A DNA stretch of 64,000 nt from NCBI GenBank assembly GCA_027008775.1, contig JALVDV010000004.1, positions 24,544 to 88,543 of the forward strand. The letters run 5' to 3'. This DNA is from Candidatus Moraniibacteriota bacterium (GTDB taxonomy: Bacteria; Patescibacteriota; Minisyncoccia; Moranbacterales; DUUL01). Shown here one piece after another: positions 1-43,828 of the stretch. Below the pieces are notes generated by a model. That model made no database searches and had not been told where the DNA came from. It worked only from the letters and a program-made list of their open reading frames with translations. Numbering within the stretch: position 1 is the stretch's first letter; each line of letters begins with the position of its first letter. The translations under genes and the position numbers were made by a program.

Positions 1-710
1 CTCCGATTTACATTCACGAATTTATGTATCCCTTGATGCAAGGCTATGACTCGGTGGCTCTGGATGTTGATGTGGAACTGTGCGGAACTGATCAAATATT
101 TAATGCTCTGGCGGGACGAACCCTTTTGCAAAAATTAAAAGGTAAGGAAAAATTTGTTATCGCCGCCAATTTGATTGCCGACGAAAAAACGGGACAACTG
201 ATGTCAAAATCAAACGGCACCGGCGTTTTCTTGGATTTAAAGCCGAAAGATTTGTTTGGGGCGATTATGGCTCAAACCGACGGAATGATCAGACCACTGG
301 CGCTTGGCTGTACCCGACTGAGCCTGGCTGAAATTAAAGAAATGGTTCAAATGGAAAATCCTCGGGACGCCAAATTAAAATTGGCCTTTGAAATTACCAA
401 AATTTTTCACGGAAAAGATGAGGCAAAAAAAGCGCAAGATTATTTTGTCAACACTTTTTCCAAAAAAGAAATTTCCGCCGAAAGTGTGGAAGAAATAAAG
501 GTGTCTGCCGGTGAACGCTTGATAGATGTTTTGGTTGAGAACAACCTGGCCGAAAGCAATGCCGACGCCAAACGAAAAATCAAACAGGGTGGGGTAAGTA
601 TTGACGGAGAAAAAATCATGGACATCCAAAAGGATGTTGATGAAACAATGGACGGAAAAATTTTAAAAGTTGGCAAGAAAAATTTCCGAAAATTAAAAGT
701 AATTCCCTAG
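1..710 (+). CDS. tyrS: tyrosyl-tRNA synthetase, C-terminal fragment (gene starts upstream of window)
   Basis: Frame is open from the window edge. KMSKS-type motif 'LMSKSNGTG'. The C-terminal S4-like RNA-binding domain ('[34 protein letters not shown]') is typical of bacterial TyrRS and not TrpRS. Confidence 0.8.
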
Positions 711-824
711 CTCTCGTGGATCTATTTTTCAACCTTTTTGCCAAAGATATTTGTTGATAAAAATAACAGTCTAACAACAAACCGAACAAGTAAAAAACAA
801 AACAAATAAAACATCGCAAAAACT

Positions 825-2561
825 ATGTCAAACAAAACACCAAAATTTGACCAGGCTCTGAAAGAAATTTTAGACAAACTGGAACCGCATCAGAGAGAAT
901 GCAAAGAGTGTGGTCAGAAGTTTGATATCTTGTCAGAAGATATTAAATTCTATAAAAGACTACAAGTCCCGCCACCGACTTTGTGTCCTGATTGTAGAGA
1001 ACAAAAAAGAGCTGGTTATAGAATAAATTATTTACCTATTTTCTATAAAAAATCTTGTTCCGTTCCCGGACATACTGAAAAAATTGTTTCTTTCTATGCC
1101 GAAAACAATCCGGTTAAAGTTTATGATGATAAATACTATTTTTCCGATCAATGGGAAGCCACTGAATTTGGCATTGACTACGATCCGGAGAAAAGTTTTT
1201 TTGAAGAATACAATAAATTTGTCCTAAAAGTTCCTCATCAATCTTTATTCAAGGATCCGCAGTCAGTTAATTCTGATTACGTAGTGGCGGGAATTCAAGC
1301 CAAAGATTGTTATTATGTAGCCTCCCCAATATTTTCAGAGAAAATATATTATGGTTGGTACCCAGAAAACTGTAAAGAATCCATTAATATTTGCGAAATC
1401 AAAAAAAGCGAATTATGTTTTGATTGTGTTTACACAAATGCCAGCTACAACTGTATTCATTGCGTTAGTGTTGATAATTGTTTAAATTCAAGTTTTCTTT
1501 ACGATTGTCACAATTGTCAAAATTGTTTTATGTCTGTCAATTTGAGAAATAAATCCTATGTTTTTCGCAACCAACAGCTAAGTAAAGAAGAATACCAAGA
1601 AAAAATGAAAGAAATTGAAATGGGAAAGAAAAGTGTTTATAAAAAATTACAAAAGGAATTTAATCAGTTGATTGAAGAAAAAGCAATTAAGAAGAATTTG
1701 GATAATGCCAAGACGGAAAATGTTTTTGGAGATAAATTAATTGAATGCAAAGATTGTTTTAAATCTTTTTCTCTTGTTAAATCAGAAAATATCAGGTATG
1801 GATTCGTAGCCAAAGAAATTAAAGATTGTATGGATTTTTGGGGAGGAACAAAAAATAGTCTGTTATATGAATCATCAGGAGTGGCCGATTCCAGTCAAGT
1901 AAAATTTTCTTTGATGATGAGAACTTGTTCAGAAGTAGAATATTCTTTTGAGTGTAGTAATTGCGAAAATTGTTTCGCCTGTTTTGGCTTAAAAAACAAA
2001 AAATATCATATCTTTAACAAACCCTATTCTAAAGAAGAGTATTACCAAAAAATAGATGAATTAAAAACGAAAATGTTGAAAAGAGGAGAATATGGAGAAT
2101 TTTTCCCTTTAAAAAATAGCCCTTTTCCTTATCAAGACTCTAACGCTCAGATAGAATTTCCTTTAACCGAAGAAGAAATAAAAGCTAAGGGTTGGCATTG
2201 GCAAGATGAAGTTCCTTCAGAAATTGATTTAACTAAAATTAAAACCATCAAAGCGGAAGATGTTCCCGATGATATCAAGGATATTACCGATGAAATACTA
2301 AAGACCCCGGTTATCTGTGCAAGAACCAAAAAACCATTTAAAGTAACTCCCTTTGAATTAGACTTTTATAGAAAAATGAGTGTTCCCTTACCAACTATTC
2401 ATCCCTCAGAAAGAGTAAAAGATTTGTTTAAATATAAAAGAGGCTATCATCTTTATTCAACAACTTGTACTAAATGCGGGAAGGAAATTCAGACGGTTCA
2501 TAATCCGGAAAAAACTGAGAATATTTATTGCGAGGAGTGTTACGCTAAAGAAGTGGTTTAG
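825..2561 (+). CDS. cysteine-rich protein P1 (578 aa, ~40 Cys). N- and C-terminal tandem zinc-ribbon-like modules and a twice-repeated central Cys-ladder module. Family not recognised.
   Basis: Long ORF. N-terminal 'CKECGQKFDILSEDIKFYKRLQVPPPTLCPDCREQKR...YKKSCS'. C-terminal '...FELDFYRKMSVPLPTIHP...CTKCGKEI...YCEECY'. Central '...NCFMSVNLRNKSYVFRNQQLSKEEY' and '...NCFACFGLKNKKYHIFNKPYSKEEY'. Clear paralog of the 3978..5747 ORF. Confidence 0.75.
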   Translation: MSNKTPKFDQALKEILDKLEPHQRECKECGQKFDILSEDIKFYKRLQVPPPTLCPDCREQKRAGYRINYLPIFYKKSCSVPGHTEKIVSFYAENNPVKVYDDKYYFSDQWEATEFGIDYDPEKSFFEEYNKFVLKVPHQSLFKDPQSVNSDYVVAGIQAKDCYYVASPIFSEKIYYGWYPENCKESINICEIKKSELCFDCVYTNASYNCIHCVSVDNCLNSSFLYDCHNCQNCFMSVNLRNKSYVFRNQQLSKEEYQEKMKEIEMGKKSVYKKLQKEFNQLIEEKAIKKNLDNAKTENVFGDKLIECKDCFKSFSLVKSENIRYGFVAKEIKDCMDFWGGTKNSLLYESSGVADSSQVKFSLMMRTCSEVEYSFECSNCENCFACFGLKNKKYHIFNKPYSKEEYYQKIDELKTKMLKRGEYGEFFPLKNSPFPYQDSNAQIEFPLTEEEIKAKGWHWQDEVPSEIDLTKIKTIKAEDVPDDIKDITDEILKTPVICARTKKPFKVTPFELDFYRKMSVPLPTIHPSERVKDLFKYKRGYHLYSTTCTKCGKEIQTVHNPEKTENIYCEECYAKEVV

Positions 2562-2597
2562 AATAGCAAGAACTCAACTTCTATGGGATTGCAAGTT

Positions 2598-2630
2598 GTG
2601 CAATTTTGCAATTGTATTGCAAAATTGCAC
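2598..2630. promoter_or_regulatory. perfect inverted repeat GTGCAATTTTGCAAT-tgt-ATTGCAAAATTGCAC (15-bp arms, 3-nt loop)
   Basis: Read directly in the 123-bp gap between P1 and the ATPase gene. No U-tract follows, so it is an operator-like or RNA-hairpin element rather than a canonical intrinsic terminator. Confidence 0.6.
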
Positions 2631-2683
2631 AAAGTTTGATAGGATTAGTTTGGTTATATCAAAACAATTAAGCATAAAAGATT

Positions 2684-3859
2684 ATGCGGAAATTTTACAA
2701 AAGAGACATAGATGAAAGGGTTCATAGGGTCTTAAAAGGGTTTCCCGTTATTTTTATTACCGGGCCGAGACAATCCGGCAAGACTACTTATATTAAGCAT
2801 CGTTTTAAGAATTATGAATATTTTAATCTGGAATCTTTTTCTGATTTTGAGTACATCTCCAATGATCCCGAATATTTTTTAAAAGAACATCCTCATAATA
2901 TTATTATTGATGAAGTGCAGAGAATGCCTGAACTCTTATCTTATATCCAAGTTCATGTTGATAAAGAACAAAGAATGGGATCTATTATTTTGTCCGGTTC
3001 CCAAAATTTATTAATATCGGAAAAAGTTAATCAGTCTTTAGCTGGCAGAGTGGCTTACTTGACCCTTTTGCCTTTTAGTTTAAATGAACTTAAGAAGGGA
3101 AAGATAATAGAAAAAAGTTCTTGGAAACAAGCATTAAAAGGCTTTTATCCGGCTTTATATAGTCGTCAAATTCCCATTGATGAATTTTATAATTCTTATT
3201 TGACTAGCTTTGTAGAACGAGATGTGCGACTAATTAAAAATATTGGTGATTTAACGCGGTTTAAAAAGTTTATGATATTGTTAGCAGGCAGAGCCGGACA
3301 GATTATGAACATATCCTCTTTGGCTGATGATACTGGAATTTCTCCAAATACGGCCGAGTCATGGCTGAGTATTTTAGAAGCCAGTTATATTATTTTTCGC
3401 TTGGTTCCATATTTTAAGAATAGCAGTAAAAGATTAATTCGTTCACCCAAAATATTTTTTTACGATACGGGCTTACTTTGTTTTTTATTGGGAATTGATT
3501 CAATAAAAGAATTGGATTCTCATTTTGCGCGAGGAAATATTTTTGAAAATTTAATTATTGCCGATATTAAAAAAGATAAAGAAGTGTTTGATATCTCTTC
3601 TCAACTCTATTTTTATAGAGATTCTAAACACAAGGAAATTGATTTGGTGATTGATTTAGGTGGAGACTTTTTGTTAATGGAAATAAAATCGGCCAGTGAG
3701 TTTAGTCAATCATTTTTAAAAAATATTGTTGAAATACAGGAGCAAGAATTTAAAAAGGGGAGAAATATAATTGTCTATAATGGCCAGAGAAAATTGAAAT
3801 TAAAGAAAGCGGAGGTGGTGCCATGGGATAAACTAGATAACGCTATGTGGGTAAAATAG
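2684..3859 (+). CDS. AAA+ superfamily ATPase, COG1373-like (AAA_14 N-terminal domain plus DUF4143-like C-terminal domain)
   Basis: Walker A 'ITGPRQSGKTT', Walker B-like 'IIIDEVQ'. Overall architecture matches the standalone archaeal/bacterial COG1373 ATPases. Confidence 0.8.
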   Translation: MRKFYKRDIDERVHRVLKGFPVIFITGPRQSGKTTYIKHRFKNYEYFNLESFSDFEYISNDPEYFLKEHPHNIIIDEVQRMPELLSYIQVHVDKEQRMGSIILSGSQNLLISEKVNQSLAGRVAYLTLLPFSLNELKKGKIIEKSSWKQALKGFYPALYSRQIPIDEFYNSYLTSFVERDVRLIKNIGDLTRFKKFMILLAGRAGQIMNISSLADDTGISPNTAESWLSILEASYIIFRLVPYFKNSSKRLIRSPKIFFYDTGLLCFLLGIDSIKELDSHFARGNIFENLIIADIKKDKEVFDISSQLYFYRDSKHKEIDLVIDLGGDFLLMEIKSASEFSQSFLKNIVEIQEQEFKKGRNIIVYNGQRKLKLKKAEVVPWDKLDNAMWVK

Positions 3860-3977
3860 TTTTCCCAACCAATCGCCAAAAAATGGAAAAAGAATTACTC
3901 TTGGTTTGATCTGGTTTCCTAAAAGAAGTTGTTATGCTTTGAATGCAAAAAATTTTTTTTAAACAACCGACATCAAT

Positions 3978-5747
3978 TTGAAAATTATGGGTCAAGATCA
4001 AAAATTAGAATCCAAAAAACTAGAAAAAAGAGTTTGTCAAAATTGTCAGAAAGAATTTACTATTGAGCCGGAGAATTTTGAGTTTTATGAAAAAATTAAA
4101 GTTCCAGCTCCGACCTGGTGTCCGGAGTGTCGCGGGCAAAGACGTATGAACTTCAACAACGTTAGCAGTCTCTACAAAAGAAAATGTGATTCTTGCGGGG
4201 AAAATATTATCGCCGTTTACCCGGAAGAAGTTGAATTTCCGGTTTATTGTCCAAAATGTTGGTGGTCGGACAAATGGGACGCCTCCGATTATGCTCGGGA
4301 CTATGACCTTAACAAACCGTTTTTTGAACAATTACGAGAGCTAAAAAATGAAGTGCCCCGAGTATCTCTGGAAGTTGATTATCAAAGAAATATTAACAGT
4401 CCTTATGCCAATCTCTGTGGTCCTTTAAAAAATTGTTATCTGACTTTTTTAACAGACACTGCTGAAGATTGTGCCTACATTTTTTCCGGTGATAATCTGA
4501 AAGATTGTTTTGATTGCACCAACGTGGCTTCGGCTGAGAATAGTTATGGTTTGTTCTATTCTGCCAAAATGTATCACTCATTTTTTTCGCGAGAGTGTGA
4601 AAATTGTTTGAATGTCTATTTCTGCAAAAATTTGAAAAATTGCCAAAACTGTTTCGGCTGTGTCAATCTCCGCAATAAATCCTATTGCATCTTTAACAAG
4701 CAATATTCCAAGGAAGACTATCAGAAACAACTCCAAGAATTACTGACCGGCTCACATCAAGCCCAAGAAACCATTAAACAAAAAGTTGAGGAATTTTTTC
4801 TGCGCTTCCCCAATAAATACATCCACGGAGAAAGCAATTTAAACGTTAGCGGTGATTATATTTATCACTGCAAAAATACACATAATTCCTACGGCATCAT
4901 TGAGGGTGAAAATGTAAAGTATTGCAAAATGTTGGAAATGGGACCAACCAAAGATTGTTACGATTACGACAGTTGGGGACAGAAAGCGGAAAAAGTTTAT
5001 GAAGCGGTGCATTGCGGGGACGGAATTAACAATATCAAATTCAGCAATGGCGCTTGGCAGTCTTACAATGTTGAATACTCCGACAACCCTTTATTTTCTC
5101 ACGATATTTTTGGCTGCGTTTTTACCAACAAAAAATCCTACTGCATCCTCAACAAACAATACTCCAAAGGAGAATACTTCCCAATGGTGGAAAAGATCAA
5201 AAAACATATGAATGAAATGCCTTACATTGACAAACAAGACCGAGTCTATAAATACGGAGAATTCTTTCCACCGGAACTGTCTCCTTTCGCTTACAACGAA
5301 ACCATCGCTCAAGAATACTTCCCTTTAACCAAAGAAGAAGCAAAAAAGAAAGGTTACAGATGGAAGGAAAGAGAAAAAAGAAACTATAACATAACTCTCA
5401 AAACAGAAGATATCCCTGATAATATTAAAGACGTAGATAATTCTATTCTCAAAGAGGTTATAGAATGCGCTACCAATAGTGAAGAAGAGAAAGCTAAAAA
5501 TAACTGTAGCGAAGCTTTTAAAATAATTCCTCAAGAATTAGAATTCTACAAAAAAATGAATCTTCCTCTTCCCAGATACTGTCCCAACTGTAGACATCAT
5601 CAAAGACTAAAAAACAGAAATCCTTTAAAACTCTACAAAAGAACTTGCATGAAAGAAGGTTGCAACAATACCTTTGAAACCACCTATGCTCCTAATAGAC
5701 CGGAGATAGTTTACTGCGAGGAGTGTTATAATCGGGAGGTGAATTAG
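3978..5747 (+). CDS. cysteine-rich protein P2 (589 aa), paralog of P1 with the same tripartite architecture
   Basis: N-terminal 'CQNCQKEFTIEPENFEFYEKIKVPAPTWCPECRGQRR...YKRKCDSCGENI...YCPKCWW'. C-terminal '...ELEFYKKMNLPLPRYCPNCRHHQR...YKRTCMKEGC...YCEECY'. Central repeats 'GCVNLRNKSYCIFNKQYSKEDY' and 'GCVFTNKKSYCILNKQYSKGEY'. Confidence 0.75.
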   Translation: MKIMGQDQKLESKKLEKRVCQNCQKEFTIEPENFEFYEKIKVPAPTWCPECRGQRRMNFNNVSSLYKRKCDSCGENIIAVYPEEVEFPVYCPKCWWSDKWDASDYARDYDLNKPFFEQLRELKNEVPRVSLEVDYQRNINSPYANLCGPLKNCYLTFLTDTAEDCAYIFSGDNLKDCFDCTNVASAENSYGLFYSAKMYHSFFSRECENCLNVYFCKNLKNCQNCFGCVNLRNKSYCIFNKQYSKEDYQKQLQELLTGSHQAQETIKQKVEEFFLRFPNKYIHGESNLNVSGDYIYHCKNTHNSYGIIEGENVKYCKMLEMGPTKDCYDYDSWGQKAEKVYEAVHCGDGINNIKFSNGAWQSYNVEYSDNPLFSHDIFGCVFTNKKSYCILNKQYSKGEYFPMVEKIKKHMNEMPYIDKQDRVYKYGEFFPPELSPFAYNETIAQEYFPLTKEEAKKKGYRWKEREKRNYNITLKTEDIPDNIKDVDNSILKEVIECATNSEEEKAKNNCSEAFKIIPQELEFYKKMNLPLPRYCPNCRHHQRLKNRNPLKLYKRTCMKEGCNNTFETTYAPNRPEIVYCEECYNREVN

Positions 5748-5863
5748 AAGGGGCAGAAGAGTGGAATGAAAAAATAAAAAGCGCCAGAAGCGATTGTTTT
5801 GGGTATAGAAATTTTTGATTGGCAGAGAAGTTGATATTTTTAAAGTTTGTGTTTTGGATGATT

Positions 5864-7378
5864 CTATAGTCCGTGGTCTCTTTTGTATTTTTGCCATTGC
5901 TTGCCGGACCAATCTTTGGGTTTTTTAGTAAAAGTTGGCTGGCTATTGTGGTGATAACTGGCGGCGTTGTGATAGAAACTCCAAAAACCATTTTTCTCTA
6001 TGACATTACCATTTTTGTCTTTGATGATTTGCCACCAGACATATTTGCGACCGCCATCGGGTGTTCTTTTTATCAGGGTCGGTCCCTCCGTTTCCACTTG
6101 GCGACCATTGGAATCGCCGAAAATGTCAAAGGTAAGAATCGTTCCGGAGAAATGTGGTTGGATTAGGATATAACCGGGGGTGTTGTTGATGAATTGGAGG
6201 TCCGGCTTGGGAATGTAAACGGTGGCGTCAGTTCCTTGAGGAGAATAGTACTGAACCGGGTAGGCGTGGTTGCGACGCTCGGTTATTTTTAGTCCGCTGT
6301 TAACGGCGGCGCGAAAAAGAGTGGTGGAAACTTGGCAAACTCCACCGCCAAACTCAGGGATGGTTTGGTGGTTTTTGATAACCAACTCCGGTTTGTAGCC
6401 AGTTTTGGCATTTACTTCCCCCAAAATCTTGATAAAAGAAAAAGTTGCTTGTGGAGGCACCAGTACCCCGTTGAATCTTTCGGTGGCGACGTGGATATTG
6501 TGAATTCTGTTTTTGGGAGATCCGCGGAAGTTTGATTGTCCGCTACCTATTTTCTCTTTAATGCCCATTTGACGGTAGTTGTCGGCGGTGATAATCGGTT
6601 TGACTATTTTAGTGGGGAGTTCAACCAGGCCTTTGGTGGATAAGGTGTCCATATATTTTTTAAGGTTTGCCATAGTTTTTTCCAAGTCAATTTCATAACC
6701 CCATTCCTCTTTTTCTTTAACGATGATTTTGTTGTTTTCGTTGGCACCAAGTTTGGCGTTGCGTGGTTCCTTTTTGGTGGAATGTTGCAGCTCTTTGAGG
6801 TATTTTTCCGCTTCTTCCAGATTAATTTGGAAATTTCTTTTTTTATTGATTTGTAGTTTGTTTGATAAGTTATGAGTGAGTTGACAAATGTTCCAAGGTT
6901 GGTCGTTGATTTCATTTTCGGCAAAACAGAGGTTGATGTTTTCAACAGTTGGTGTGTTGGCAAAAGAGGTGCTTGGTTGAAAGACAACAATTGTTTTTTC
7001 TCGAGAGAAAGAGGTTGGCTCAATGGGAACAATACGATTATAAATTTTGACAAAATATTCTTTTTCCCGGCTAAATTTTTCCGCAGAATTTGTTTCCGGT
7101 TCCGTCTCTTCAATGACTTTTTCCTTTTCTTTTTCTTTATTTTTATTGCTTTTGGAAAGAGAAGAATTGTTGTGAACTTGTTGAGAGGGAGAAGAATTTA
7201 GAAGCAGACTGTTGGAAATATTTGCCATATTTTGTTGTTGGCCAGTTTGGTTGGTGGCAATGGTGTTATTTGTTTTGGTGGTAGCCAGACTTGTTAGAGG
7301 ACACAAAAAAAACACTCCAACCAGATTTAGGCTAAAGACAAGAAAATATCTGACGATTAAACAGCGATTATTATTCAT
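5864..7378 (-). CDS. VanW-family protein (signal/TM anchor, long low-complexity linker, C-terminal VanW domain)
   Basis: 'GYKPELVIKNHQTIPEFGGGVCQVSTTLFRAAVNSGLKITERRNHAYPVQYY' is the VanW hallmark. Hydrophobic N-terminus. Confidence 0.7.
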   Translation of the reverse strand: MNNNRCLIVRYFLVFSLNLVGVFFLCPLTSLATTKTNNTIATNQTGQQQNMANISNSLLLNSSPSQQVHNNSSLSKSNKNKEKEKEKVIEETEPETNSAEKFSREKEYFVKIYNRIVPIEPTSFSREKTIVVFQPSTSFANTPTVENINLCFAENEINDQPWNICQLTHNLSNKLQINKKRNFQINLEEAEKYLKELQHSTKKEPRNAKLGANENNKIIVKEKEEWGYEIDLEKTMANLKKYMDTLSTKGLVELPTKIVKPIITADNYRQMGIKEKIGSGQSNFRGSPKNRIHNIHVATERFNGVLVPPQATFSFIKILGEVNAKTGYKPELVIKNHQTIPEFGGGVCQVSTTLFRAAVNSGLKITERRNHAYPVQYYSPQGTDATVYIPKPDLQFINNTPGYILIQPHFSGTILTFDIFGDSNGRQVETEGPTLIKRTPDGGRKYVWWQIIKDKNGNVIEKNGFWSFYHNAASYHHNSQPTFTKKPKDWSGKQWQKYKRDHGL

Positions 7379-20603: not shown

Positions 20604-22325
20604 ATGGTAACTAAAAAAAATTGGTCTTATCCTGACCCGAAAACCACTGATCCGGTGGAGCATCGTATTCAAAGGTTCTGGGAAATATTGCCCGGCTTTT
20701 TGACTTGGTTAACTTTACTGGGGATGTTCTTTTTTGCCTGGTGGAAGCCGGTATGGGCGGCGGTTTTTATTATTTCTTATGATCTTTACTGGTTGTACAA
20801 GACGATTTATATTGCCAGTTATTCCATTATGTCTTACCGAAAGATGCGTCGCTGGGAAAAAATTGATTGGCTTCATCGTCTGAAGGCCATTTTCAAAGGG
20901 AAAAAAATATTGAAGGAGTTGGATGAAGAAATTGCCAGACTGGAGAAAAGGATTAAAGAGGCTCCTTTGTTTAGCAAGAAAAGACGAGAATTGAAACAGC
21001 AACTAGTAGAGAGAAAGAATTTTAGGAAAAGAGCGGAAAAAGATTTGCGTCATCGTGACAAATTTTTGGACTGGCGGAAGGTTTACCATGTTATTTTATT
21101 GCCCAATGCTATAGAGACAGCAGAAAATATTAGACCGGCCATTCAAGCGGTTTTAGATTCCAATTATCCGAAAGACAAAATAATTATTGTCTTGGCGATG
21201 GAAGAGAGGGAGCCGGAGGAGAAGCGGAAAAAGAAAGAGAGAATATTGAGGCGAGAATTTGGCGATAAATTTTTTGATTTTATTGTTACCGTTCATAAGG
21301 TGAAGGGTAAGGAAATGAAGTGTAAGGCCTCCAATACAACTTACGCTGCCAAAAAAATTAAGAAATATTTGGAGGAGAAAAATATTCCTTTGGAAAATGT
21401 TATCTTATCCAATCTTGATTGTGAGTCCAGAATTCACCCGCAGTACTTGGCGGCTTTGACTTACGCTTATGTGACAGAACCAAAACGTTTGCAATACGCT
21501 TACCAACCCTTGCCGATGTATCATAACAATCTTTGGGACACAATTGCACCGGTGCGAATAATTGTAACAGGATCGTCTTTTTGGCACATGGTGGAGGCAA
21601 TGCGTCCGGAGCATATGGTGACCTTCTCTTCGCACAGTGAACCATTTAAAACTATTGTTGATATCGGTTATTGGCCGGTTAATGTTATTTCCGAGGATTC
21701 TTTGGTATTTTGGAACGCCTATAATTATTTTGATGGTGATTATGAAGTGAAGCCGATTTATTTGCCGGTTTCCATGGATGCGGTTTTGGGTAATAATTAT
21801 TGGCACACCATTAAAAATCAATACAAGCAAAATCACCGCTGGGCTTACGGGATTGAAAATTTACCCTTGCTTTATCGGGCGATGCGCAAAAACAAAAAAA
21901 TTCCTTTTTGGACCAAGGTAAGACACCTTTTTACCATGTTGGAAGGTCATCATAGTTGGGCCACTTCTTCTTTTATTTTAGCTTTGCTGGGCTGGTTGCC
22001 GTTGATTTTGGGGGGCAACAAATTTAATGAATCAATTTTGGCGCACAACTTGCCTTTTGTTACTCGTTATTTGATGACGATTGCTTTAGTTGGCTTGTTT
22101 GTTTCTATGATTTTGAGTTTGTTTTTAATGCCGGCTAGACCAAGAGGACATTCTCGTAAAAAATATTTGGTGATGATTTTACAGTGGGTAATAGCGCCGA
22201 TTATTGCTCCTTTTTTAGGAGCGGCGCCGGCGGTACATGCTCAAACAAGGTTGATGTTGAAGCGTTATATGGGAGAGTTTTGGGTAACGGAAAAAATTAT
22301 CAAAAAACCGAAAAGCTCTAGATAG
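20604..22325 (+). CDS. processive family-2 glycosyltransferase (cellulose/chitin-synthase-like) with N- and C-terminal TM domains
   Basis: 'QNHRWAYG' = Q(x2)RW motif; GT-A-like central domain; TM helices on both sides. Confidence 0.6.
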   Translation: MVTKKNWSYPDPKTTDPVEHRIQRFWEILPGFLTWLTLLGMFFFAWWKPVWAAVFIISYDLYWLYKTIYIASYSIMSYRKMRRWEKIDWLHRLKAIFKGKKILKELDEEIARLEKRIKEAPLFSKKRRELKQQLVERKNFRKRAEKDLRHRDKFLDWRKVYHVILLPNAIETAENIRPAIQAVLDSNYPKDKIIIVLAMEEREPEEKRKKKERILRREFGDKFFDFIVTVHKVKGKEMKCKASNTTYAAKKIKKYLEEKNIPLENVILSNLDCESRIHPQYLAALTYAYVTEPKRLQYAYQPLPMYHNNLWDTIAPVRIIVTGSSFWHMVEAMRPEHMVTFSSHSEPFKTIVDIGYWPVNVISEDSLVFWNAYNYFDGDYEVKPIYLPVSMDAVLGNNYWHTIKNQYKQNHRWAYGIENLPLLYRAMRKNKKIPFWTKVRHLFTMLEGHHSWATSSFILALLGWLPLILGGNKFNESILAHNLPFVTRYLMTIALVGLFVSMILSLFLMPARPRGHSRKKYLVMILQWVIAPIIAPFLGAAPAVHAQTRLMLKRYMGEFWVTEKIIKKPKSSR

Positions 22326-42196: not shown

Positions 42197-43828
42197 TTGG
42201 ATGAAGCATGTAAGAATGAGTGTGGGGAAACAAAAATAAAAGTGGAAAAAATGGGAAATAATAAAACCGCGCGTTTGATTAAAGAAACGGTAAAAGACAA
42301 AGTGCGAGAGCAGATTTATTCGCAGTGGTTGTTGCTAAGGAAAAAGTTGCTAGCAATTTTTCTTTTTTTAGCTCTCTTGTCGCTGGGAATTATTTGGTGG
42401 ATTGGCCCGGAATCTTTTTTGTTAACTCAGCTAATTGGCAGTGGTTACGAACGTGTAACCAAGCCAACCATGGATTTTATGAAAGAGAAAGGGTGTGTTT
42501 ATGATGGTTTGTTGACGCCGAGATATAATACCAATTTATCGGTGAGCGCGGAATTGGTAAGAAATACCGGCTGCCGTTACATTCATCGTGCTGTGGAAAC
42601 TTGGAACATTCCGCCGGATTTTGCTGAAATAAAAAGGCGAATGGATTTTATTAATCGGCGGGCGGGTAAAAAAATTCGTTACGGAATGTTTTTGGCCGAA
42701 TCTGTTGATACAAATAGAAGTTATTATGATCCTTATTCCAAAAGGCGCTTTTATTTTGCCAAGATGTGTTTGTCGGGAAGTCAGGGAGTTTGGGGTGAAG
42801 GAACTTGCAAGCCATCTTTTGCGCAAAAGGAATACAGAGACTATTTGCGGGCGGTGACTAGACGGGCTATTGATTTGGGGATTGAAGATTTTACTTTCGG
42901 GCAGATTTACTATCAGGATCCGACTTGGCGCAGATCCAGCGCTTTGGCCAGGAGTATCATCGCAGAAATCAAAAGGTATGGGAAATTCAAAGGTAAAGAT
43001 ATCTCGGTGGGGGCGCAAACCAATGATATTGACAGAGAGGAGTATTTGCGCAGTTTTGATTACATTACCGGTGGTATTGGTCAGGATTTGCGAGGCAACA
43101 TTCAAAAGGAGGGAGGTTGTTGGAACTATTATTTGAAAAGAAACGGTTATTGTTGGGCGATGTTGTGGGATAAAAAATATTTTGAACGCTCCAATGATGT
43201 TTTGGTTTATCTGGATTGGAACAATAGTTTTAGTGACGATATCCATCGTTTTACCAGGATGGACAGGCAGAAACGGGCCAAGTTTTTGGGGCGAGCTTAC
43301 GATTTTTTTCTTTGGCGGAAAGTCGGTTTTCTTAGCCCTTTAGGAGAGGTTTTGGGCAATGTTCCGGCCGGCTGTTACGGTCCAACCCCGGAATTTTATT
43401 CGGCCAGCAATCGTTATTCTTGTAGGGATGAAGATGCCATTAAGAATATTTTGTCCGGGGGAAATTTATTGCCGGGACATAGCCGATTTTTGGGACAACA
43501 GGTACCTTTATTGATGAGAGTCGGGGAAAAATATCAAGTGAGAATAAGAATGCAAAATACCGGCTACGGTATTTGGAAAAGGGGAAATGGTTACAGATTG
43601 AGAGATAGAAATTTGCTAAACTCTCCTTCAGCACATTGGGGAAGGGAAGAAGTTTTATTGAGTGAAAATGATGCAATCAAACATAATCAATTCAAAGATT
43701 TTGTTTTTACGGTGAAAGCACCGGAGGTGGCAGGCGATTATGTTTTTGTTTGGCAAATGTTTTCGGACAGTGATGGCTTTTTTGGCGCTCCGAGTGACAC
43801 CCTAACTATCAGGGTGGTGAATAAATAG
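42197..43828 (+). CDS. hypothetical membrane-anchored exported protein with a C-terminal Ig-like (NBR1-like) beta-sandwich
   Basis: TM at residues about 50-70; C-terminus 'YQVRIRMQNTGYGIWKRGNGYRL...GDYVFVWQMFSDSDGFFGAPSDTLTIRV'. Confidence 0.4.
   Translation: MDEACKNECGETKIKVEKMGNNKTARLIKETVKDKVREQIYSQWLLLRKKLLAIFLFLALLSLGIIWWIGPESFLLTQLIGSGYERVTKPTMDFMKEKGCVYDGLLTPRYNTNLSVSAELVRNTGCRYIHRAVETWNIPPDFAEIKRRMDFINRRAGKKIRYGMFLAESVDTNRSYYDPYSKRRFYFAKMCLSGSQGVWGEGTCKPSFAQKEYRDYLRAVTRRAIDLGIEDFTFGQIYYQDPTWRRSSALARSIIAEIKRYGKFKGKDISVGAQTNDIDREEYLRSFDYITGGIGQDLRGNIQKEGGCWNYYLKRNGYCWAMLWDKKYFERSNDVLVYLDWNNSFSDDIHRFTRMDRQKRAKFLGRAYDFFLWRKVGFLSPLGEVLGNVPAGCYGPTPEFYSASNRYSCRDEDAIKNILSGGNLLPGHSRFLGQQVPLLMRVGEKYQVRIRMQNTGYGIWKRGNGYRLRDRNLLNSPSAHWGREEVLLSENDAIKHNQFKDFVFTVKAPEVAGDYVFVWQMFSDSDGFFGAPSDTLTIRVVNK

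Follow-up and report, generated by a model that had tools for sequence, protein, structure and literature searches.

The stretch of DNA analysed here, called the window below, comprises 64,000 nucleotides of contig JALVDV010000004.1 (assembly GCA_027008775.1) from a Candidatus Moraniibacteriota bacterium. Close to its start lie three genes on the forward strand: two encode large cysteine-rich proteins, P1 and P2, and the gene between them encodes a COG1373-type ATPase (Table 1). An earlier reading of the same DNA, made from the sequence alone, had delineated these three open reading frames (ORFs), called P1 and P2 paralogs and described them as free of transmembrane (TM) or signal segments, and all of this holds. 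The alignment of P1 with P2 spans both proteins completely at 35% identity (E 5e-101), and a hydropathy scan over 19 residues finds no TM or signal-like segment in either protein, with maxima of 0.8 in P1 and 0.5 in P2. The same reading put the cysteines at about 40 in each protein; counting gives 29 in P1 and 34 in P2. The public gene call starts P2 at the ATG at 3987, which yields a protein of 586 aa. The intergenic gaps measure 122 bp between P1 and the ATPase and 118 bp between the ATPase and P2. The window contains no further copy of the family, P1 and P2 making up the whole set. The sequence comparisons given below place P1 and P2, as neighbours, in a very large and ancient multigene family that forms arrays and whose named members are almost all Patescibacteria.

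Table 1. Features of the P1-ATPase-P2 region, in positions of the window (AF2, AlphaFold2; pLDDT, predicted local distance difference test; pTM, predicted template modelling score)
Feature	Position	Strand	Details
P1	825..2561	+	578 aa, 29 Cys; more conserved 'B' clade; AF2 pLDDT 86.3, pTM 0.89
P1 N-terminal zf_Tbcl-type finger	900..995	+	C26/C29...C54/C57; Cys 94-98% conserved family-wide
P1 beta-solenoid 1	1266..1553	+	~8 coils of 12 residues; Cys/small residues every third position
P1 beta-solenoid 2	1725..2012	+	duplicate of solenoid 1; ends C377-x2-C380-x2-C383-x2-C386
P1 C-terminal finger-pair copy	2289..2549	+	first finger degenerate; second exact CxxC-x17-CxxC
P1 last finger CxxC-x17-CxxC	2466-2540	+	C548/551/569/572
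Inverted repeat, P1-ATPase gap	2596..2632	.	perfect 17-nt arms, 3-nt spacer
COG1373-type ATPase	2684..3859	+	391 aa; AAA_14 + DUF4143; PADLOC PDC-S01
P2	3978..5747	+	589 aa from TTG, 34 Cys; heterogeneous 'A' clade; AF2 pLDDT 88.0, pTM 0.89
P2 N-terminal finger pair	4035..4259	+	zf_Tbcl-type C20/23/48/51 + exact CxxC-x17-CxxC C70/73/91/94
P2 solenoid 1, linker helix, solenoid 2	4392..5147	+	solenoids at 4392-4679 and 4848-5147
P2 C-terminal finger pair	5439..5735	+	last finger C557-x4-C562-x17-C580-x2-C583

Searches with P1 retrieved 1902 homologous proteins and those with P2 at least 7987 clusters at 90% identity, and an exhaustive profile search gives 2130 clusters at 50% identity with E<=1e-30. 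All homologs bear uninformative names, either hypothetical or the label of a zinc-finger domain, and nearly all have a length of 550-610 aa. Named sources are nearly all Patescibacteria and include Staskawicz-, Lipton-, Gribaldo-, Harrison-, Yanofsky-, Giovannoni-, Sung-, Brenner-, Kuenen- and Nomurabacteria, along with Paceibacterota, Peregrini-/Peribacteria and Gracilibacteria.

Family genes were found to be arranged in co-directional tandem arrays in the 87 loci fetched around homologs, 83 of which are non-redundant. The copy number per locus ranges from 1 to 10, and the largest arrays pack 9-10 copies into about 20 kb: locus L040 carries nine full-length copies and a cut one, L044 nine, L016 and L047 eight each, and L007/L056 at least nine with 4-bp overlaps. 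In assembly AH-259-L07 at least 12 copies over two loci take up about 21 kb of DNA. The median gap between adjacent family genes is 5 bp (147 pairs), and 80% of the gaps are of 60 bp or less. The sequence-only reading had suggested looking for the paralog pair in related genomes; its recurrence is exceeded, as the genes form arrays, while the adjacency to the ATPase recurs in near-identical strains only. For 91% of the members the best match lies in a locus of another genome, at a median identity of 57% against 44% within the own array. Since the closest relatives reside in other genomes rather than in the own array, the paralogs are ancient. The clade of P1 (B) is conserved and usually represented once per array, and the clade of P2 (A) is large and heterogeneous. 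A fixed order of paralogs along the arrays was considered and rejected, the sub-clades obtained by the unweighted pair group method with arithmetic mean being only loosely patterned, as in AAAABAAAA. On the Gracilibacteria contig L080 the family match at 1498-6946 splits into short ORF fragments under genetic code 11; this is consistent with the UGA-recoded code of Gracilibacteria, and copy counts there are underestimated.

The ATPase between the two paralogs is identified by its AAA_14 (1.5e-27) and DUF4143 (2.3e-44) domains and by Walker A (GPRQSGKT) and Walker B (IIIDE) motifs, in agreement with its earlier assignment. A dedicated system of P1, ATPase and P2 had been proposed on the strength of their arrangement, with a possible role in nucleic-acid targeting, redox or metal-cluster chemistry. 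The three genes are indeed co-directional with short gaps, and the layout is repeated in two near-identical strains, one represented by L088 (93% nucleotide identity) and the other by a 39-kb contig. These strains are the only places where it recurs. A phmmer search with the ATPase of the window as query finds a homolog in none of the 87 other family loci, so that the conserved synteny named as a check by the earlier reading is absent and the adjacency falls under what that reading itself took to indicate a chance juxtaposition. In L089 the orthologs of P1 (62% identity) and P2 (63%) are separated by a triosephosphate isomerase gene instead, and family genes normally abut. Furthermore, PADLOC has a stand-alone candidate for phage defence by a single gene, PDC-S01, whose model the ATPase matches along its entire length (E 9.6e-96, residues 1-383). 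A three-gene system is therefore very improbable, and we judge the ATPase to be an insertion, specific to this lineage, that separates two members of an array and is unrelated to the function of the family. By its sequence match it is a candidate single-gene defence insertion; to our knowledge, candidate defence genes have rarely been noted in Patescibacteria. The inverted repeat upstream of it (TTGTGCAATTTTGCAAT / ATTGCAAAATTGCACAA) lies about 50 bp before the ATPase start, is also present in L088 (reverse-strand match, 92% identity), and may serve the inserted gene as an operator or form a hairpin behind P1. In L088, the closest relative, a run of 100 N occupies 3703-3805 within the ATPase gene. 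The deletion and frameshift that tblastn suggests there were considered as decay of the gene and rejected, as the DNA alignment shows the run of N to be a scaffold gap. The GC content is 0.30-0.32 in P1, in the ATPase gene and in the two gaps, which makes them richer in AT than the window on average (0.39). For promoters and terminators, a scan of 600-6000 gives 22 and 5 candidates where chance would give 18.9 and 3.3, and neither count stands out.

P1 and P2 were compared with Pfam, NCBIfam, PADLOC and PDB by sequence and profile searches, and matches are confined to the terminal fingers, leaving the core of about 400 aa with no relative in these four databases. The statement of the sequence-only reading that no characterised family fits is thus borne out. 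PADLOC has no match for either protein, comparison with PDB by sequence and by profile yields only marginal, LIM-like matches, all to the last finger, and Foldseek against PDB and BFVD returns nothing at E<=0.001, its matches being merely of zinc-ribbon size. We also searched the literature for the family, the Pfam names and cysteine-rich or beta-solenoid families of the candidate phyla radiation and found no description. Because no family in the four databases covers the core and no literature description was found, we consider both the family and the gene-cluster type to be new; the building blocks, zinc fingers and a beta-solenoid, belong to known fold classes. The solenoid region of P1 (residues 161-337) weakly matches phrog_15341, a phage family of unassigned function (E 3e-4), and none of 50,697 phage records is matched by P1 in tblastn.

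The architecture of the proteins is seen in a family-wide alignment of 242 full-length members from arrays. With this alignment, hhalign relates the N-terminal module (13-107) to the C-terminal module (489-575) with a probability of 99.8% (E 1.6e-27), and the first half of the centre (146-265) to the second (296-414) with 99.9% (E 3.9e-36), against 0.5% for a control comparison. Two internal duplications therefore define a pseudo-symmetric layout: a finger pair, a solenoid with its cap and helix, a second solenoid with cap and helix, a linker and a second finger pair. Each solenoid is closed off by a conserved, cysteine-rich last coil followed by a hairpin and a helix. The sequence-only reading had recognised a central module present twice in each protein, and had read the C-terminus as a second copy of the N-terminal ribbon module. 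The former is upheld; the latter is confirmed by hhalign at the level of the module, the third ribbon being degenerate in P1, where only C498 is left.

That the termini are zinc fingers, as first proposed, is supported by residues 543-576 of P1, which score 28.7 bits with PF23477 (zf_Tbcl_2), just above its gathering score of 27, and by the exact CxxC-x17-CxxC spacing. P1 reaches 26.8 bits with TIGR04272, under the cut-off of 36, and P2 has no match to either model at E<=1. The N-termini score 18.8 (P1) and 15.8 bits (P2) with PF13451 (zf_Tbcl) and do not reach its gathering score of 24. As the four cysteines and the F..I..FY..VP.P..CP.CR motif are nonetheless present and 94-98% conserved, the N-terminal finger is a divergent relative of PF13451 rather than a scored member. 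The cysteines of the outer fingers are nearly invariant across the family: 94-98% for C26/29/54/57 and 98-100% for C548/551/569/572, in P1 numbering. The inner fingers are often degenerate: about 31% of members have the full set of cysteines at 78/81/101/104, and about 55% have it at 498/501/526/529. All four fingers of P2 keep their cysteines, and two of the four in P1, both inner ones, have lost theirs. Accordingly, the second ribbon described earlier (LYKR-x-C-x2-CG ... YC-x-[EK]C) is intact in P2 (C70/C73/C91/C94), and P1 keeps only C78 of it. Small CxxC-x17-CxxC proteins of Methanosarcina mazei bind zinc, as established by inductively coupled plasma mass spectrometry (PMC12704099), so that zinc is the metal to be expected by default in the fingers.

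Autocorrelation of the profile over the centre has its maximum at 12 residues and harmonics at 24 and 36. Written out in rows of 12, the centre has cysteines only at every third register position, with 0% elsewhere, and the four inward positions hold small residues (C/S/T/A/G/V) in 55-89% of sequences over about eight coils per solenoid. This register is derived from sequence and independent of AF2. The Tenebrio antifreeze protein (TmAFP) is a narrow beta-helix of 12 residues per coil with inward-facing residues at every third position, and the cysteine register of the family is the pattern of such a narrow beta-helix. In the AF2 models the strands of solenoid 2 of P2 have pLDDT 85-98. A pentapeptide-repeat or hexapeptide left-handed beta-helix was considered and rejected, as neither a period of 5 or 6 (18 per turn) nor a match to the Pfam hidden Markov models was found. 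P1 has no consistent i/i+6 cysteine pairs of the kind that form disulfides in TmAFP, and there is no TxT ice-binding ladder, a single TxT occurring in each of P1 and P2.

A rival explanation is a metal or redox function, in which the inward cysteine ladder and the CxxCxxCxxC coils would bind iron, Fe-S clusters or many zinc or copper ions for electron transfer, metal storage or buffering, or a thiol-based redox-switch chaperone. The conserved feature of the centre is the last coil of solenoid 1, whose cysteines form one full, inward-facing turn: C228 is conserved in 86% of members, C231 in 93%, C234 in 95% and C237 in 76%, P1 itself having S237 after C228-x2-C231-x2-C234. In solenoid 2, C386 and C395 are conserved in 98% and 86%. 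The remaining ladder cysteines are conserved in 30-70% and swap with S/T/V/I/L, and therefore fit packing residues better than obligatory ligands. The CxxCxxCxxxCP ferredoxin motif is absent from P1 and P2, whose motifs are CxxCxxC(xxC), and no Fer4 family of Pfam matches them at E<=1. Structural matches stay far under significance, and the neighbourhood genes considered in this connection each occur in less than 10% of loci. A metal or redox role for the family thus seems unlikely.

Conservation is unevenly spread along the sequence: the fingers, both solenoid caps (221-260 and 381-410) and residues 421-440 have the lowest positional entropy, the solenoid bodies and two linkers the highest, and indels are nearly absent. 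The median isoelectric point of the family is 6.3, near neutral, and DNA mimicry or strongly basic nucleic-acid binding was rejected for want of a supporting charge. This pattern of conserved ends and caps, variable bodies, near-zero indels and near-neutral charge agrees with a scaffold. We tentatively propose that the family consists of cytoplasmic scaffold or adaptor proteins, non-enzymatic and stabilised by zinc. Through their highly conserved end modules and solenoid caps they would bind a partner common to all; the outward faces of the solenoids, which vary, would give each paralog its own binding specificity, and the members of an array would be co-expressed. Taken as a whole, including the ATPase of the window as an unrelated insertion, we hold this to be the leading explanation, at a confidence somewhat short of an even chance.

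The same conservation pattern might be produced by a hetero-oligomeric polymer or ring, cytoskeleton-like, in which solenoid ends and fingers serve as head-to-tail interfaces: these are the most conserved regions, distinct paralog clades have been kept since ancient times, and arrays such as that of L007, with its 4-bp overlaps, appear translationally coupled. Beta-solenoids such as curli and bactofilin do polymerise end to end. A fixed assembly fits poorly with a copy number that varies from one locus to another and with a clade order that is not conserved, the window having two copies only. In the AF2 models a hairpin and a helix cap the solenoid ends, which would normally block end-to-end stacking. 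We regard a polymer as quite unlikely, somewhat more so than a metal or redox function.

A possible partner of the proposed scaffolds is suggested by the neighbours of the arrays. The largest cluster of neighbouring genes encodes a P-loop ATPase with no TM segment, and hence soluble, which matches TrwB_AAD_bind, T4SS-DNA_transf, DUF87/HerA and TraG-D_C, PADLOC mad8 and HerA, and phrog_5156. Such a VirD4-like ATPase occurs in 33 of the 83 non-redundant loci (about 40%), in most cases no more than 150 bp from a family gene and in its orientation; examples are L063:5890-7998, L003:6439-7941 and L007:13332-14963, with 30 further loci. Identity among 18 loci is 47-78%. There are two forms: a short one of about 485-500 aa with no finger, and a long one of 544-910 aa with a low-complexity tail and a CxxC-x17-CxxC finger (PF23477, 37 bits) of the same type as those at the termini of the family. 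In a subset of lineages the adjacent soluble VirD4/HerA-like pair is probably the partner of the scaffolds. These ATPases correspond to the abundant orphan VirD4 homologues of Patescibacteria, of which 5713 are reported in 2918 genomes and only 148 near virB4, with exaptation noted as a possibility (PMC12102498).

The same neighbourhood would be expected if the paralogs were effectors or substrates of the VirD4-like ATPases, exported to the host by a type IV secretion system (T4SS), the arrays then reflecting host-range diversity. The placement of the ATPases, the lack of a Sec signal in P1 and P2 and the variable solenoid faces agree with this, and orphan type IV coupling proteins (T4CPs) are abundant in Patescibacteria with no explained role; VirB2 pilin genes likewise form divergent tandem arrays in the group (PMC12102498). 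The evolutionary behaviour of the family is of a different kind. Orthologs retain 45-57% identity across candidate phyla, roughly the level of core proteins, the paralogs are ancient, unlike fast-evolving effectors, and there is hardly any variation in length or architecture. True T4CPs have a TM anchor, which is missing from these ATPases, most VirD4-like loci have no member of the family, and several tightly folded zinc sites would be awkward for an export that depends on unfolding. An effector role is unlikely, to about the same degree as a metal or redox one.

Several points weigh against the scaffold explanation, beginning with the partner. VirD4-like ATPases are also found in many loci that have no gene of the cysteine-rich family. 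Seeding with the ATPase gave 80 metagenome loci, 13 of which include a member of the family; among the 60 whose flanks are adequate, 10 do. The positive ones were mostly the closest relatives and loci with both classes of the ATPase (8 of 12). This reciprocal test weakens the link, which is real but lineage-restricted and may partly be inherited synteny, and the window itself has no VirD4-like ATPase. Structure prediction, proposed by the sequence-only reading for the central part, returns a solenoid centre in both proteins at the pTM given in Table 1, with solenoid 1 at pLDDT 57-80 only, in P1 as in P2, and AF2 can over-predict beta-solenoids for repeats (PMC11795689). The conserved CxxCxxCxxC coil may hold iron or an Fe-S cluster in place of zinc. 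R58, N398, E511, R530 and D337 are invariant polar residues and may form an unrecognised active site. Binding, oligomerisation and location of the family are all inferred.

A bolder explanation would join several of these elements. The arrays might encode a new apparatus specific to Patescibacteria, consisting of co-expressed solenoids with a metal-thiolate core and zinc-finger connectors, which a dedicated pair of soluble VirD4-like ATPases would load, assemble or translocate. The solenoids might then form a heteromeric filament inside the cell or be effectors of a new class, delivered to the host. We give it a low probability, on a par with that of the polymer. If true, it would provide a function both for thousands of orphan T4CP genes and for a family that ranks among the largest without annotation in these episymbionts.

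The interest of the family lies in its striking size, age and copy number in genome-reduced episymbionts. In Patescibacteria the genome measures about 1 Mb or below, and most biosynthesis has been discarded. Some of them nevertheless keep 9-12 or more copies of a 1.75-kb gene. An investment of this kind implies an important, group-specific function, the more so as the paralog lineages are old and conserved across candidate phyla. The recurrent neighbourhood with soluble VirD4-like proteins provides a concrete, testable lead for orphan coupling proteins.

Small genes also recur in or next to the arrays: CutA1 in eight loci, a TrmB-type helix-turn-helix (HTH) gene on the opposite strand in seven, a MarR/HTH_24-like gene of about 93 aa in seven and a PaaX/Cas2-like gene of about 180 aa in six (examples are L020:2414-2716, L002:3310-4053, L005:9790-10068 and L038:6106-6660). 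DnaK is recurrent in or beside the arrays as well, these neighbours being found in 6-8 loci each, and the small genes are possible regulators or accessory factors.

The window is an ordinary piece of chromosome and carries typical housekeeping genes, among them those for TyrRS, ValRS, a GatA-type amidase, IF-2, GroEL, Hsp20 and VanW-like and ComM-like proteins. GC skew is positive in 31 of its 32 bins of 2 kb, and the cumulative skew climbs almost monotonically to 7.1, although genes are present in both orientations. The window is probably part of a single replichore. Two other large ORFs, 20604-22325 (573 aa) and 42197-43828 (543 aa), have no Pfam match at E<=1e-5 and are not matched when P1 and P2 are compared with the window by tblastn.

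Set beside known systems, P1 and P2 resemble different ones in their different parts. All four terminal finger positions are of the PF13451, PF23477 and TIGR04272 types; these are domains of about 40 residues with no known role, which cover less than 25% of P1 and P2 and inform nothing on the core. The intervening gene is a full-length member of the COG1373 / PDC-S01 ATPases, a likeness that says nothing on P1 and P2. The array paralogs standing beside a translocase-type ATPase recall the substrate clusters of secretion systems, the comparison being with VirD4-type coupling proteins and their substrates and with FtsK/HerA-type ATPase modules. True VirD4 coupling proteins are anchored by TM segments, which the array-adjacent ATPases lack; the latter are usually not near virB4 (PMC12102498), and most of their loci are devoid of the family. 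No secretion signal is known for the family of P1 and P2. Among solenoids, curli CsgA and the left-handed beta-helix have coils of about 20 and 18 residues against the 12 of P1 and P2, are devoid of a cysteine ladder and of fingers, and match under the level that indicates homology. The TmAFP-type helix differs by its i/i+6 disulfide in each coil and its TxT ladder. It is nonetheless the narrow beta-solenoid, with its repeat TCTxSxxCxxAx, that P1 and P2 resemble in their inward small and cysteine residues, sharing with TmAFP both the 12-residue period and the inward-facing residue at every third position.

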